From an uncultured Chloroflexia bacterium (GTDB lineage Bacteria; Chloroflexota; Limnocylindria; Limnocylindrales; CSP1-4): 64,000 nucleotides of DNA. Location: NCBI GenBank assembly GCA_963746845.1, contig CAVVCZ010000002.1:160001-224000 (forward strand). The letters run 5' to 3'. Below the pieces are notes generated by a model, which worked only from the letters and a program-made list of their open reading frames with translations, was not told the DNA's origin and searched no databases. Each line of letters opens with the position of its first letter. Positions within the stretch are counted from its first letter, which is position 1. Positions 27,444-35,833 of the stretch are shown here, piece by piece. The translations under genes were made by a program, and so were the position numbers.

Positions 27444-27515
27444 GAAATAACGGTGCGCAAGCCGACGCCCTAGTGACATCTCTCGATGTGCCGGAACCGG
27501 GCCGGGCGGCATTGT
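27444..27515 (+). promoter_or_regulatory. Activator-dependent promoter P1
   Basis: GAAATAACGG at 27444, CGATG at 27484, -10-like CATTGT at 27510. Confidence 0.55.
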
Positions 27516-27565
27516 CGTAGCCATCACCGGCAATCCCGTTGGTGACGGCGAAAGGCACGATAGCG

Positions 27566-27751
27566 ATGCACCAGTACACGACCACCCTGCTCGTCCATCC
27601 GGCGATCGACGAGCTCCACCGCGAAGCGGACAGCCGGCGCCTGGCCGCCCTCGGTCGTCCGGCCCGGCCGGGCGTCCGCGTCTCGATCCTCGGGCGCCTC
27701 GACGCGATGCTCCGGTTCGCGCATCCGCGTCCGCACTCGGCGCGGGGCTGA
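27566..27751 (+). CDS. Small protein (61 aa) upstream of the LAL regulator
   Basis: MHQYTTTLLVHPAIDELHREADSRRLA...; aligns without gaps to the small ORF at 31025. Confidence 0.6.
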   Translation: MHQYTTTLLVHPAIDELHREADSRRLAALGRPARPGVRVSILGRLDAMLRFAHPRPHSARG

Positions 27752-27797
27752 CATCCGTCCATTGAGGACGCTGATCGACGCCCACGATGATCGGGGG

Positions 27798-30700
27798 ATG
27801 GCGGGGAGAAGCATCAGTCCCATCTTCATCGGGCGCTCGGAGGAGCTGCGCCGGGCCGAGCTCGTCCTCGACCGCGTCGCGGACGACCCGACCCACCTCC
27901 TCGTCTCGGGCGAGGCCGGTGTCGGCAAGACCCGCTTCACCCGCGAGCTGACCCGCCTCGCGGTCGAGCGCGGCTTCCGCGTCCTGCGCGGCGCGTGCAT
28001 CGCGGTCGGCGGCATCGGCCTGCCCTATGCCCCGATCGCCGGGGCCCTCCGCGACGGGATCGACGACGAGGACCGCGAGGCGCTCGCGACGCTCGGTCCG
28101 CGCGCGCAGGCTGCCCTCGCCAACCTCGTCCCGCGGCTCGGCTCGGTGCTGCCCGGCGGCGGGATCCCGGACGACGGCGAGCTCCACCGGCGCGCGACCG
28201 ACGACGTGCCCGTGAGCACGGTCGGCAGCCAGTCCGGGCTCTTCGACGCGCTCCTGCGCGTCCTCCAGGCGCTGGCCACGGACGCGCCCGTCCTCCTGAT
28301 CATCGAGGACCTCCACTGGGCCGACCCGGCCACGCGCGACGTCCTGACCTGGCTGATCCCGAACGTCACCAGTGATCGAGTCGTCCTCTGCCTGACCTAT
28401 CGCACGGACGAGCTGGATCGACGCCACCCGCTCCTGCCGTGGCTCGCGGAGCTCGGCCGGACCGGCCGGTTCGACCGCATCGACCTCGAGCGGTTCGATC
28501 GCGACGACACCGCCCGGATGGTCGCGGCGATCCTCGGCGAGCCACCGGACCGGGCACGGCTCGCCCGCCTTCATGACCGCACCGACGGCAACGCCTTCTT
28601 CCTCGAGGAGCTGCTGATGGCCGGCGGCGCCGGGACGAGCATCGCCGGCCTGCCGCCGACGGTCCGGGCCACGCTCGTGACGCGGATCACCGCGACGCCG
28701 GAAGCGGCCCAGCGCGTGCTGCGGGTGGCCGCGGTCGCCGGGCGACGGGTGGATCACGAGCTGCTCGCCGAGGTCGCGGAGGTCACGGACGACGAGCTGA
28801 CCGAGGGCCTCCGTGCCGCGATCGACCGCCAGCTGCTCGTCCAGGACCGCGATGCGGACTCGGCCGGCTTCGCGTTCCGCCACGCCCTCGTCCAGGAGGC
28901 CGCATACGACGACCTGCTGCCCGGCGAGCGGCGCTCGCTCCACCGCGCCTACGCGGAGGCCCTCGCACGTCGGACGCAGCCCGCCGGTGCCGGCGGGGCG
29001 GCCCACTGGGCCGAGCTGTCCCACCACTGGGCCGCCGCCCATGACGACGTCCGGGCCGCCCAGGCCTCGATCCGGGCGGGAGACACCGCTTTCGAGGCCT
29101 GCGCGTTCGCGGCCGCCCAGCGCCAGTTCGAGCTGGCGCTCGAGCTCTGGGACAGCGTCGCGGACGCCGAGGAGACCCTGGGCCTCGATCGGGTCGAGCT
29201 GCTCGTCCGGGCCGCGGGCGCGGCGGAGGTGGACGGCGAGTTCCACCGGGCCGCCGACCTCCTGCGCCAGGCGATCGAGACCCAGGACGCGGTCGCGGAC
29301 CCGGTCCGCGGCGCGCTGCTCCGGGCGCGTCTCGGGCGCGCGCTCTGGCGCGACGAGGGCGCGGAGCCGTCGCTTGCGATCTACGCCGAGGCGATCGCGA
29401 TGCTCCCGGCCGCGGAGCCCACCGCCGATCGCGCCCGGGTCCTGTCCGGGATGGGCCAGATCCTCATGCTCGTCGACCGGTTCGCCGAGGCGATCGCGAT
29501 GTGCGAGGAGGCGGTCGCGATCGCACGGGCCGTCGGTGATCGCGAGGTCGAGGGTCACGCGCTGAACACGCTGGGCCTGGGGCTCGCCGCGCTCGGACGC
29601 TGCCGCGAGGGGACGCAGGCGCTCGAAACGGCGCTGGCCATGGCCCTCGAGCTCGGCGGGTCGGATGACGTCGCCCGCGCCTACGTCAACCTGAGCGACG
29701 CGATGCGGCTGTGCTCGCTGACCCGCGAGTCGGTCGACGTCGTCCAGGCCGGCATCGTCGACATCGATCGACTCGGGGCCACCGGCTCCTACGGCGCGAA
29801 CATCCGGGAGAATGGCGCGCTCTTCCAGTTCGAGATCGGCGACTGGGATGCGGCCGACGCCTGGGCCCGCGAGTCGCGGCGGATGGTCCGGCCGGGACGG
29901 AACGCGTGGCTCTATCACCTCGCGTACACGGTCGGGCTCGGCGTGGCGCGCGATCATCCGGACGTGGCCGGCCGGCTCGATCGGTTCGCGGACCTGCTGG
30001 AGGGCCAGCCCGTCGAGGGCCAGTACCACGGCGCCTACGCGCTCGCGGCCGCCGAGCACGCGCTCTGGAAGCGCCGGCCGGGCGAGGCGGTCGACACCGT
30101 CGAGGCGAGCATCGCCCTGCTCAGCGACCACTGGTTCCCGTACTACCTCTCGCAGATCCACGCGATCGGCACCCGCGCGGCGGCCGACCTCGCCGAGCTC
30201 GCCCGGGACGAGCGGACGCCGGCGGAGGTCATCGAGACGCAGCTGGGCCGGATCGACGTCCATGTCGACCGGATCCGCCGCCTGATCGCCTCGCACAACC
30301 CCGAGCCGGGCGCGTGCAACCTGCTCCATGCGACCCTCCGGGCCGCACTCGCCGAGCGGAGCCGCGCGGCGGGGATGCCCGATCCGGCCGCGTGGGAGGC
30401 CGCCGCCGACGCGTGGCTGTGCGCGGATCGTCCATACCACGCCGCGTACGCCCAGTACCGGCTCGCCGAGGCCCTCTTGTCCTCGGGCGACCGGGCCGGG
30501 GCCCGCGCGCCGCTCGCGCTCGCCGCGGAGTGGGCGAAGGCCCAGGGCGCGCGGCCGCTGCTCGCGTCGATCACCTCGCTGGCCCGTCGGTCGCGGACCG
30601 ATCTTGCGACGCCGGATTCCGATGCCCCGGTGATCGAGGCCGCGGGCGCGCCACTCGGGGGTGGCGGCGGCGACCGGTTCGGACTGACGACCCGTGAGCG

Positions 30701-30887
30701 TGAGGTGCTCGAGCTCGTGACCGCCGGCTTGACGAACCGCCAGATCGCGGAGCGGCTGTTCATCAGCGAAAACACGGCCGGCGTCCATGTCTCGAACATC
30801 CTCGGCAAGCTCGGCGTCGCCGGCCGGACCGAGGCCGCCGCGGTCGCCGTGCGGCTCGGGCTGGTCGAGGTCGCCGTAGAGGTCTGA
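27798..30887 (+). CDS. Large ATP-binding LuxR-family regulator (LAL/STAND: AAA_16 + TPR-like + LuxR HTH)
   Basis: SGEAGVGKT, LLIIEDLHWAD, GNAFFLEEL, LTTREREVL...NRQIAERLFISENTAGVHVSNILGKLG. Confidence 0.93.
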   Translation: MAGRSISPIFIGRSEELRRAELVLDRVADDPTHLLVSGEAGVGKTRFTRELTRLAVERGFRVLRGACIAVGGIGLPYAPIAGALRDGIDDEDREALATLGPRAQAALANLVPRLGSVLPGGGIPDDGELHRRATDDVPVSTVGSQSGLFDALLRVLQALATDAPVLLIIEDLHWADPATRDVLTWLIPNVTSDRVVLCLTYRTDELDRRHPLLPWLAELGRTGRFDRIDLERFDRDDTARMVAAILGEPPDRARLARLHDRTDGNAFFLEELLMAGGAGTSIAGLPPTVRATLVTRITATPEAAQRVLRVAAVAGRRVDHELLAEVAEVTDDELTEGLRAAIDRQLLVQDRDADSAGFAFRHALVQEAAYDDLLPGERRSLHRAYAEALARRTQPAGAGGAAHWAELSHHWAAAHDDVRAAQASIRAGDTAFEACAFAAAQRQFELALELWDSVADAEETLGLDRVELLVRAAGAAEVDGEFHRAADLLRQAIETQDAVADPVRGALLRARLGRALWRDEGAEPSLAIYAEAIAMLPAAEPTADRARVLSGMGQILMLVDRFAEAIAMCEEAVAIARAVGDREVEGHALNTLGLGLAALGRCREGTQALETALAMALELGGSDDVARAYVNLSDAMRLCSLTRESVDVVQAGIVDIDRLGATGSYGANIRENGALFQFEIGDWDAADAWARESRRMVRPGRNAWLYHLAYTVGLGVARDHPDVAGRLDRFADLLEGQPVEGQYHGAYALAAAEHALWKRRPGEAVDTVEASIALLSDHWFPYYLSQIHAIGTRAAADLAELARDERTPAEVIETQLGRIDVHVDRIRRLIASHNPEPGACNLLHATLRAALAERSRAAGMPDPAAWEAAADAWLCADRPYHAAYAQYRLAEALLSSGDRAGARAPLALAAEWAKAQGARPLLASITSLARRSRTDLATPDSDAPVIEAAGAPLGGGGGDRFGLTTREREVLELVTAGLTNRQIAERLFISENTAGVHVSNILGKLGVAGRTEAAAVAVRLGLVEVAVEV

Positions 30888-30906
30888 CCTAACGGTCCGT
30901 CCGCGA

Positions 30907-35081: not shown

Positions 35082-35131
35082 CGAATTCTCAGAGACCTCG
35101 CAGACGACGACCGGACGATCGCCCTGCGTCC

Positions 35132-35165
35132 GACAACTGAAGAACAACCGAAGAACAACCGAAGA
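35132..35165 (+). repeat. 34-bp triple repeat identical to 33694-33727
   Basis: G-ACAACTGAAGA-ACAACCGAAGA-ACAACCGAAGA, flanked by hairpins at 35112-35132 and 35176-35211. Confidence 0.9.
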
Positions 35166-35275
35166 CGCCACTCCCGAAACGACCGGCCGCCGCCAGCGAG
35201 CCGGTCGTCTCAATTCCCGGCCCCGCGGGAGCCGTCGAGACGGCCCGGGCGGTCGGCCGGGTGACCCGGGGCGGC

Positions 35276-35342
35276 ATCGTCATCCGTCGCCCCGTGGCGT
35301 CGCCGTCCGCCGATGGTCGCCCGCGTGGTCGCCGACGAGGAT
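35276..35342 (+). promoter_or_regulatory. Activator-dependent promoter P6
   Basis: ATCGTCATCCGTCGC at 35276 (cf. TACGTCATCCGTCGC in P3), CGATG at 35311, GAGGAT at 35337. Confidence 0.5.
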
Positions 35343-35389
35343 CAGGGTCGCCAGCAACCGCCATCCGGCGCCACTCGGAGACGACCCAC

Positions 35390-35833
35390 ATGTTTCGCGG
35401 ATCCCGCCTCGCGGCCTCGTTCCTGCTCGTCCTCACCGGTCTGACCGCTCTCGCGACCGCCCTGTTCGTCGTGCCGGCGGCCGTCGGGGCCGGCGGCGGG
35501 CGGTGGCTGACGCCGGTCGTCCTCTTCCTCGCGATCCTCCACTTCGTCGCGCTCGTCGGCATCTACCGCGGGCGTGACTGGGGCCGCAACCTCGCGGTGT
35601 TCGTGGCCGAGCTCGGCGGCGGGATCGCGATCCTCGGCGCCATCTCGCTGCTCACCGGTGCCCATCCGTTCGGCGCCGACAGCGCGACGGGCCTCGGCCT
35701 GATCGCCTGGTCCGCGGGTGTCTACGCGCTGCTCGGGATCGCGGCCGGCCGGATCCCGGTCCTGTCGCGACTGACCCCGATCGAGCGCCGCCGGGTCGTC
35801 TTCGGCCCGAGCTTCGCCGGCATCGTCCGCTGA
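35390..35833 (+). CDS. Hypothetical 4-TM membrane protein
   Basis: GGAG RBS and four hydrophobic segments. Confidence 0.7.
   Translation: MFRGSRLAASFLLVLTGLTALATALFVVPAAVGAGGGRWLTPVVLFLAILHFVALVGIYRGRDWGRNLAVFVAELGGGIAILGAISLLTGAHPFGADSATGLGLIAWSAGVYALLGIAAGRIPVLSRLTPIERRRVVFGPSFAGIVR

Follow-up and report, generated by a model that had tools for sequence, protein, structure and literature searches.

Two predicted LuxR-type regulons with a common promoter layout precede small genes in a Limnocylindria genome

We analysed a stretch of 64,000 nucleotides from an uncultured Chloroflexia bacterium of the Limnocylindria (genome G000, contig C2, positions 160001-224000; GC content of the genome 71%), hereafter the window. 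The region of interest contains an MFS gene, a gene for an AAA-TPR-LuxR regulator of the LAL type with 1029 amino acids (aa), guaB3, an F420-dependent reductase gene, a reverse-strand DUF1028 gene, a globin gene and guaA. Six promoter-like sites in this region had been assigned in a preliminary description to a single regulon of the LAL protein or its paralogues. All six sites are real, and they fall into two classes, sites 1 and 2 (class A) and sites 3 to 6 (class B). Judged from sequence, they probably represent two separate regulons of regulators with a LuxR-type helix-turn-helix (HTH) that have a promoter layout in common, a LAL cassette (class A) and a response-regulator array (class B). 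The single regulon is not supported; the box of sites 3 to 6 goes with a response regulator of NarL/LiaR type whose gene lies outside the region.

The analysis proposes a binding motif and first targets for a predicted regulator that is 90-98% identical across the genus. It also brings to light families of small proteins that have no entry in Pfam or NCBIfam, and two conserved RNA modules of 3' untranslated regions (3' UTRs) that are missing from Rfam. The class of mechanism is known (NarL-type activation, MalT-type cassette), and what is new are the outputs and a possible hierarchy. To our knowledge the lineage is represented by metagenome-assembled genomes (MAGs) only. For locus comparison, 19 loci of the genus and one from another family were fetched. 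The genus set comprised 43 genomes and the class set 201 sampled genomes, and the genus and class tallies (class-B pattern, regulator, LAL and others) include genomes G010, G283 and G174, which are flagged as unpublished; no statement at the level of sequence depends on these three. In the open-access literature (PMC and bioRxiv; subscription papers and supplements lay outside this scope) we found no description of the regulon, the motif or the small proteins, and the accessible portion of the main text of a paper on Limnocylindria (PMC13212565) mentions neither two-component nor LuxR regulators. Atlas searches returned leads below 0.9 only.

Six promoter sites of two classes

Each site consists of a CG[A/G]TG element beginning 26 nt before an nAnnnT hexamer that resembles a -10 element, and of an upstream box that starts 61-62 nt before the -10. 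Behind the sites lie open reading frames (ORFs) of 61, 64, 40 and 70 aa and one for a membrane protein of 147 aa with four transmembrane helices. All of these features, as given in the preliminary description, were recovered in place. Across the called intergenic DNA of the genome (444 kb), the full pattern (box, CG[A/G]TG, N21 and nAnnnT) had 7 matches, and none of 40 simulations with a second-order Markov model contained it. Since the pattern was defined from these six sites, independent support for it comes from conservation. The shared core fared differently: CG[A/G]TG-N21-nAnnnT alone had 102 intergenic matches, against 76-131 for spacers of N14 to N29, and this minimal motif was rejected as a genome-wide regulon signature because it occurs at background level. 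GATG was found 25 nt before an intergenic TAnnnT 13 times, against 3-11 times at other offsets (1693 hexamers), a weak excess. The upstream boxes are two motifs; the class-B matrix scores sites 3 to 6 at 15.5-27.7 bits and sites 1 and 2 at 1.4 and 10.0 bits. Motif information resides in these boxes and not in the common core. Several LuxR-type regulators here have the layout CGATG-N21-(-10) in common, so proximity to a LAL gene does not by itself assign a box to the LAL in question. The sites do look like activator-dependent promoters of LuxR-type regulators, and the short genes behind them are real and conserved; what is not supported is their union in one regulon.

Conservation of the class-B array

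The four class-B promoters follow each other on the forward strand at 33047..33114 (site 3; palindrome 33047-33062, CGATG 33083, -10 33109), 33578..33645 (site 4; palindrome 33578-33593, CGGTG 33614, -10 33640), 34746..34812 (site 5; palindrome 34746-34761, CGATG 34781, -10 34807) and 35276..35342 (site 6; palindrome 35276-35291, CGATG 35311, -10 35337). All four have as their box an imperfect palindrome of 16 bp, TACGTCA-N2-(G)GTCGYA, located 35-36 nt before CGATG; at promoter 5, the divergent DUF1028 gene also starts 59 nt from it. Of the genus loci with coverage, 17 of 17 have the box in front of the 40-aa ORF. In eleven of these the interval upstream of guaB3 is covered as well and contains no LAL gene. 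The strict class-B pattern was found in 32 of the 43 genus genomes, with a single match in the reversed control, and nAnnnT lies exactly 26 nt after the CGATG-like element at 36 of 48 class-B sites of relatives.

By a matrix trained on relatives only, the five best sites of G000 are the four in the window and one on contig C8 (C8:24132). Two Markov simulations yielded no site of at least 27 bits (4 in the real genome), and 0 and 2 sites of at least 25 bits (5 in the real genome). The training set had 54 rows, 5-6 of them spurious, which were kept in the matrix for genome ranking and dropped for the analyses of LAL starts and of the 26-nt spacing. Pattern matches in family f3 (7/61) were not counted as sites because they look like one coding stretch (reading YVIRR). 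No relation was detectable between the 147-aa protein behind site 6 and the target protein on C8.

That the six sites are chance matches or remnants of repeats with no regulatory function is extremely unlikely. Such an explanation would account for the weak -10 hexamers, the post hoc pattern and a core at background level, but boxes and spacing are kept across the genus where the flanks diverge, and mismatches within the ORFs are biased by codon position (43/10/90 for the 40-aa ORF and 97/55/220 for the 70-aa ORF).

The same data bear on the proposal that the adjacent LAL or its paralogues activate all six sites through the common CGATG, as MalT does through a box overlapping the -35. CGATG sits where the MalT motif of Actinoplanes sp. 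SE50/110, TCATCC-N5-GGATGA, ends, 34.4 nt before the start according to the available part of PMC7567727; GATG occupies this place before LAL-cassette ORFs of several clades, and 32 of the 43 genus genomes have some LAL of the subfamily. We nevertheless regard a single LAL regulon as very unlikely. Genomes G049, G052 and G058 keep class-B promoters with CGRTG together with the response regulator and have no LAL match at E<=1e-100, the upstream boxes differ between the classes, and the common core is not enriched genome-wide. The part of the LAL proposal that is supported concerns sites 1 and 2. Sites 3 to 6 persist at the 11 genus loci in which no LAL lies between the upstream genes and guaB3.

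Within the array, the reverse-strand DUF1028-TPR gene (33797-34687) is present in some relatives and missing in others, with the four promoters unchanged in place. Two further intergenic class-B boxes were seen in G000, one at C4:377023 (-), which is followed by a possible 28-aa ORF and then by an ABC transporter, and one at C6:455823, in reverse orientation and with CGGTG-N21-(-10), before a 65-aa small ORF of the cassette type.

A response regulator associated with the class-B box

The best candidate reader of the class-B box is a predicted response regulator encoded at C6:115493-116158, beside a soluble kinase with eight GAF domains. It is of NarL/LiaR type, with a REC domain, a LuxR HTH with basic recognition residues and a HisKA_3 kinase alongside, and a class-B box lies upstream of its gene. 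The locus (C6:115493-123821) comprises the genes for the 1994-aa kinase, a single-domain REC protein and the regulator and, divergent from these, genes for a three-helix membrane protein and a lipoprotein with a cupredoxin domain. The kinase contains 8 GAF, 2 PAS and a HisKA_3 domain and no cysteine; with a peak hydropathy of 1.64, below the threshold of 1.7, no membrane segment was called, and the span matching it varies between genomes from about 4 to 7 kb. The regulator is present in 67 of the 201 sampled class genomes.

Of the genus loci with coverage, 29 of 29 have a class-B box no more than 700 nt before the regulator gene (one locus of 30 was too short), as have 18 of 26 loci outside the genus; the background is 174 in 3304 genes. 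For a 65%-identical paralogue the count was 0 of 19 (one of 20 too short). A second box lies between the kinase gene and the divergent membrane-protein/cupredoxin operon in 16 of 20 loci. Only 2 of the 26 LuxR-HTH genes of G000 have a box upstream, namely the REC-regulator operon and a LAL gene on C7. The distance from box to -10 at the REC gene, read from the alignment, is 63 nt, compared with 61-62 nt in the array. An orthologue of the regulator (at least 90% identity) was found in 26 of the 32 box-bearing genus genomes, and a close LAL in 5 of them. In the small freshwater genomes of family f2, the regulator (0/10), the class-B pattern (0/12) and the 70-aa gene (0/10) are all absent; genomes G203, G239 and G289 have both a pattern match and the regulator.

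The closest solved structures to the regulator are those of LiaR/VraR (PDB 5HEV, 4GVP). In the part of the LiaR study that was available (PMC4482077), the Enterococcus faecalis consensus is T(X)4C(X)4G(X)4A and the contacts are Lys174, Lys177 and Thr178. Sites 3, 4 and 5 fit all four positions of this consensus and site 6 fits two. In an alignment made by the spacing of the contact motif K-x-x-K-T (numbering of chain and paper is offset by four), the regulator has R-x-x-R-T at the place of this motif and the LAL protein has N-x-x-G-V. The LAL helix (E-N-T-A-G-V-H) is thus without the basic residues with which LiaR reads such a box.

Several observations weigh against assigning the class-B box to the C6 regulator. 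Strong two-part sites in the genome number only 5, a small regulon for so conserved a regulator. Among syntenic copies of the 70-aa gene, 20 of 59 score below 13 bits, many with a GTCCA right half (of the non-syntenic copies, 0 of 20 reach 13 bits). The genomes are related, so that the counts are not independent. Six of the 32 box-bearing genus MAGs have no orthologue of the regulator; the 5 regulator-less MAGs tested, some of them 91% and 86% complete, also lack the divergent membrane gene, and none of the same 5 gave an orthologous match to the kinase (a single match, of 40% identity, was seen), which would reflect either an assembly gap or loss with retention of the box. Genome G285 (94% complete) likewise has a pattern match and no regulator, and G182 has a looser match and no regulator. 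The CCUCC RNA described below could not be used to trace box loss in regulator-less lineages, because outside the genus its model matched a paralogous 3' UTR behind another gene.

A further point is that the orphan paralogue (C1:22958-23629) has a near-identical recognition helix (ERTARTH) and could bind the same box. Genome G018, for which the search did not find the C6 protein, does contain this paralogue. That this paralogue, or another NarL-type regulator, is the main reader in place of the C6 protein seems quite improbable to us, given the 0 of 19 paralogue loci with a box at most 700 nt upstream against 29 of 29 for the C6 regulator. The paralogue gene lies inside an operon, and its promoter may thus be beyond the 700 nt scanned.

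Predicted mechanism of the response-regulator array

We propose that class B is a genus-conserved tandem array of four promoters to which the C6 regulator would bind. The soluble kinase beside it is its presumed partner and would phosphorylate the regulator, which would then bind the 16-bp palindrome, whose centre lies about 66 nt before the predicted start, and would activate transcription; activation rather than repression is what we infer. Activation may be helped by another, weaker site that ends in CGATG, lies at about -38 to -34 and is putatively occupied by the same protein. The regulator would also control its own REC-regulator operon and the membrane-protein/cupredoxin operon divergent from the kinase. 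The predicted outputs are small membrane and Cys-rich proteins whose mRNAs would end in conserved RNA modules. The signal might be redox or metal stress, a guess prompted by the presence of cupredoxin, Cys-rich and globin genes nearby.

A different arrangement would have two inputs, with the regulator on the distal palindrome and a second LuxR-type protein, MalT-like or a LAL paralogue, on CGATG, both needed at sites 3 to 6. The proximal element does not fit the spacing of the 16-bp palindrome and, before the 40-aa ORF, comes near another palindrome, CCWTCG-N2-CGATGG; genes of the 70-aa family follow CGATG-N21-(-10) in combination with several different upstream boxes, in some cases next to STAND-LuxR genes. 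On the other hand, a LiaR tetramer binds its consensus and a dissimilar secondary site (PMC4482077, available text), which would explain a weak second site without a second protein, and no co-occurring second regulator was found. We judge the two-input arrangement unlikely, although less so than the paralogue as reader.

The reading of class B as an array under the C6 regulator invites comparison with the LiaR/VraR regulons of Firmicutes. Both have a NarL-family REC-HTH regulator with a HisKA_3 kinase, and both have, by the available text on LiaR, a 16-bp box at some distance upstream of the promoter and a secondary site next to it. Autoregulation and small membrane proteins among the targets are also alike, if our predictions for the present system are right. 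The kinase differs in having 1994 aa, 8 GAF and 2 PAS domains and no predicted membrane helix, and in being followed by a single-domain REC gene, and the targets differ in being without Pfam or NCBIfam match. LiaFSR systems are defined by an intramembrane-sensing kinase with membrane helices and by the inhibitor LiaF. No LiaF-like gene is among the flanking genes listed at the C6 locus. The C6 system therefore resembles LiaR at the level of DNA and is not a LiaFSR system by this definition.

The LAL cassette

Class A is a variably present cassette of promoter, small ORF and LAL gene, by its sequence a MalT-type arrangement, and in the window it occurs once complete and once decayed. Promoter 1 (27444..27515, +) has an AATAACG box at 27446, a proximal element ending in CGATG (27484-27488) and a -10 at 27510-27515, and the same layout precedes the small ORFs of LAL cassettes in relatives. 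It is followed by the 61-aa small ORF (27566..27751, +), a helix with the pattern L.REA..RLA and without match in Pfam or NCBIfam, and by the LAL gene (27798..30887, +). Proteins of the LAL/MalT type have an N-terminal STAND ATPase with Walker A/B motifs, a helical-repeat sensor and a C-terminal LuxR HTH in about 900-1100 aa, and activate their targets in dependence on ligand and ATP. By its domains and length the LAL protein is a STAND regulator of this type, with AAA_16, TPR_12 and GerE (LuxR HTH) domains above cut-off, and its motifs GEAGVGKT and IEDLHW are largely invariant among 14 homologues. Promoter 2 (30889..30977, +) has three direct heptamer repeats (30889, 30910 and 30932), CGATG at 30946 and a -10 at 30972, and lies between tandem LAL genes in relatives. 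Behind it are the 64-aa small ORF of the second cassette copy (31025..31219, +) and a frame-broken HTH remnant of a second LAL gene (31290..31412, +; 73% DNA identity to 30775-30880, and recognisable in translation), the remainder of which is deleted; in G016, G011 and G013 an intact second LAL stands in its place.

A LAL gene is present at this locus in 3 of the 19 genus loci, each time as two tandem genes, and close LAL relatives (at least 57% identity) occur in 5 of the 43 genus genomes. Of 28 LAL loci covered on their upstream side, 17 had a similar small ORF called before the LAL, and box-GATG-N21-(-10) usually preceded this ORF. The class-A box varies with the recognition helix of the LAL: AATA(A/G)CG or AATGACG goes with helices of the type ISENTAGVH, box AATGAAGG with ISESTAGVH and box TTGAGGTA with ITRKTAGVH, and for ISPKTASVH no cassette was called. 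Class-A sites in the genome number 3, the third being at C4:790041 before a methyltransferase-like gene. Sites 1 and 2 are best assigned to the adjacent LAL protein on these sequence grounds. The STAND/LAL protein would bind the direct heptamer repeats, about 22 bp apart, and a site overlapping the -35, and would activate the small ORF placed before each LAL gene.

The Actinoplanes MalT regulon, as far as the available text describes it, is similar in its STAND-LuxR regulator, in a GATG equally far from the start, in poorly annotated neighbouring targets and, if the predicted binding at class A is right, in an activating box that overlaps the -35. It differs in its motif, for the class-A box consists of direct AATAACG repeats and CTCGATG and not of TCATCC-N5-GGATGA. 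Class A is further set apart by its 3 genomic sites and by an own small ORF before each LAL, and it would account for only 2 of the 6 window sites.

A homologue search with the 61-aa protein recovered only itself (2 candidates), so the family was recognised from synteny instead. A regular-expression scan of G000 for further cassette-type small ORFs returned none; the pattern was too strict, because such ORFs do appear in G000 in another listing. Co-folding of LAL residues 1-935 with the 61-aa protein was uninformative, with a score of 0.01. The slot upstream of guaB3 (window 27412-27444, loci L001-L018) is variable between relatives and holds a probable DinB-like gene, an ECF-sigma-like pair (both labels read from sequence) or tandem LAL cassettes.

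Immediately before the LAL gene lies a predicted leaderless promoter (27747..27791, +), with a class-B-like palindrome at 27747-27762, 51 nt before the LAL start, and a -10 at 27786-27791. Boxes of at least 10 bits occur 51-53 nt before the start of 8 of 30 LAL genes, compared with 4 of 3304 genes at 50-54 nt; this count used a matrix extended post hoc with GTCCA variants, and the eight LAL starts fall into two related groups. The position of the box suggests that the LAL gene may be a target of the regulator, in a possible cascade in which the response regulator may switch on LAL genes. Alternatively, the LAL itself could read the class-B-like site before its own gene. A bolder extension, which we consider doubtful, would make the GAF-array two-component system a master switch of the Limnocylindria. 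It would include a cascade from kinase to response regulator to STAND protein to small protein, and dual-function transcripts, with an anti-Shine-Dalgarno RNA independent of the alphaproteobacterial cuckoo RNAs and an A-rich protein-sponge RNA kept despite loss of the ORF.

Small proteins behind the class-B promoters

None of the class-B target proteins has a match in Pfam or NCBIfam. The 40-aa peptide (33157..33279, +) has one hydrophobic helix (residues 4-22) and an Arg-rich tail and is 65-88% identical in 15 relatives; it had 178 database matches, with no Pfam among the 120 matches listed. A distant relative of this peptide, followed by a cassette-type small ORF, was seen at C6:335590 behind a GTAACC/GGTTAC inverted-repeat operator, and such pairs also occur in families f3 and f4.

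The unit behind promoter 4 (33652..33795, +) has no ORF and carries three ACAACYGAAGA repeats (33695, 33706 and 33717) and a hairpin (33744-33783), with a folding z of -0.2 for the whole unit. It had been described as a non-coding structured region, and the want of an ORF is correct here. In 11 relatives, however, the corresponding unit encodes a paralogue of the 70-aa protein (CxxxxCxC) in 5, a short decayed ORF in 1 and no called ORF in 5, and the region is the 3' part of this unit. Five relatives have, like the window, repeats that start 31-67 nt behind the -10, and the ORF-less form thus recurs.

The 70-aa protein (34869..35081, +) has a C-x4-C-x-C motif and one helix, also in its structural model (predicted local distance difference test score 70), for which a fold search had no match at E<=0.001. 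The family had 128 matches among 50%-identity representatives, a few of them spurious (P0003, P0110, P0119 and P0122 are repeat-protein artefacts). In the records seen it is essentially confined to Limnocylindria MAGs, labelled mostly as Candidatus Limnocylindrales or uncultured Chloroflexia/Chloroflexota, with a few other labels. A second copy with C-x4-C-x-C is found at C7:19504-19701, divergent from a STAND-LuxR gene and with CGATG-N21-(-10) and a different upstream box. The last target (35390..35833, +) is the 147-aa four-helix membrane protein, of no known family.

RNA modules in 3' UTRs

The 3' UTR of the 40-aa gene (33302..33410, +; z = -4.2) contains one A-rich motif followed by two hairpins with CUCCUCC loops resembling an anti-Shine-Dalgarno sequence. 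Two pyrimidine-rich hairpin loops were present in 17 of 17 sequences, and two-sided changes were found at 6 of 15 pairs, 20 in total, a number reached in 0 of 500 shuffles. The Rfam scan of the window gave nothing at gathering score and three sub-threshold matches; ar14 reached 17.8 bits against a gathering score of 58.8, and CcsR1 17.3 against 65.3. A model of this 3' UTR matches 35 of 54 other genomes of the family, mostly in paralogous 3' UTRs behind other genes. A second CCUCC double hairpin lies at C5:356338-356464 (-), where it belongs to the 3' UTR of a different small gene, unannotated and conserved throughout the family.

The cuckoo/CcsR RNAs of Alphaproteobacteria (ccaF1 3' UTR; PMC8034643 and PMC4615179, available parts) are likewise 3' UTRs of a small-protein mRNA with two adjacent CCUCC-loop hairpins and variable stems. 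Cuckoo RNAs have 2-4 adjacent hairpins with variable stems and a CCUCCUCCC-type motif in each loop, and are released as stable small RNAs that pair with ribosome-binding sites. Here two hairpins are present in 17 of 17 sequences, with loops that are CUCCUCC-rich and not always the full 9-mer, so that the element is a candidate, cuckoo-like RNA. The present RNA differs in phylum, in an ORF for a membrane peptide and not DUF1127, in a promoter predicted to depend on a response regulator and not on RpoH, and in being a single unit whose second hairpin may be a terminator.

The 3' UTR of the 70-aa gene (35133..35225, +) has three ACAACYGAAGA repeats and a hairpin and is paralogous to the unit at 33695; across relatives the number of ACAACYGAAKA repeats at either 3' end is 2-5, accompanied by a hairpin. 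Identity of these A-rich repeats with the rRNA boxA antiterminator is not supported, because the repeat unit is without the U-rich core given in the available part of PMC13753749, where the core bound by NusB is AUGAUCUUUGAAA in Bacillus subtilis and UGCUCUUUAACA in Escherichia coli. The motif ACAACTGAA is found in the 16S rRNA leader and directly before three further leaders (C4:1256339, C5:155209, C8:11998 and C9:28095, all -). The ACAACYGAA 9-mer of the repeats thus recurs at these places. To the eye, the three further leaders look like SAM riboswitches. The motif is possibly a shared single-stranded protein-binding signal. Finally, on the contig that carries the regulator locus, the GC content of C6:1-50000 falls to 55-60%, against about 71% elsewhere, and this stretch is either an island or mis-binned.

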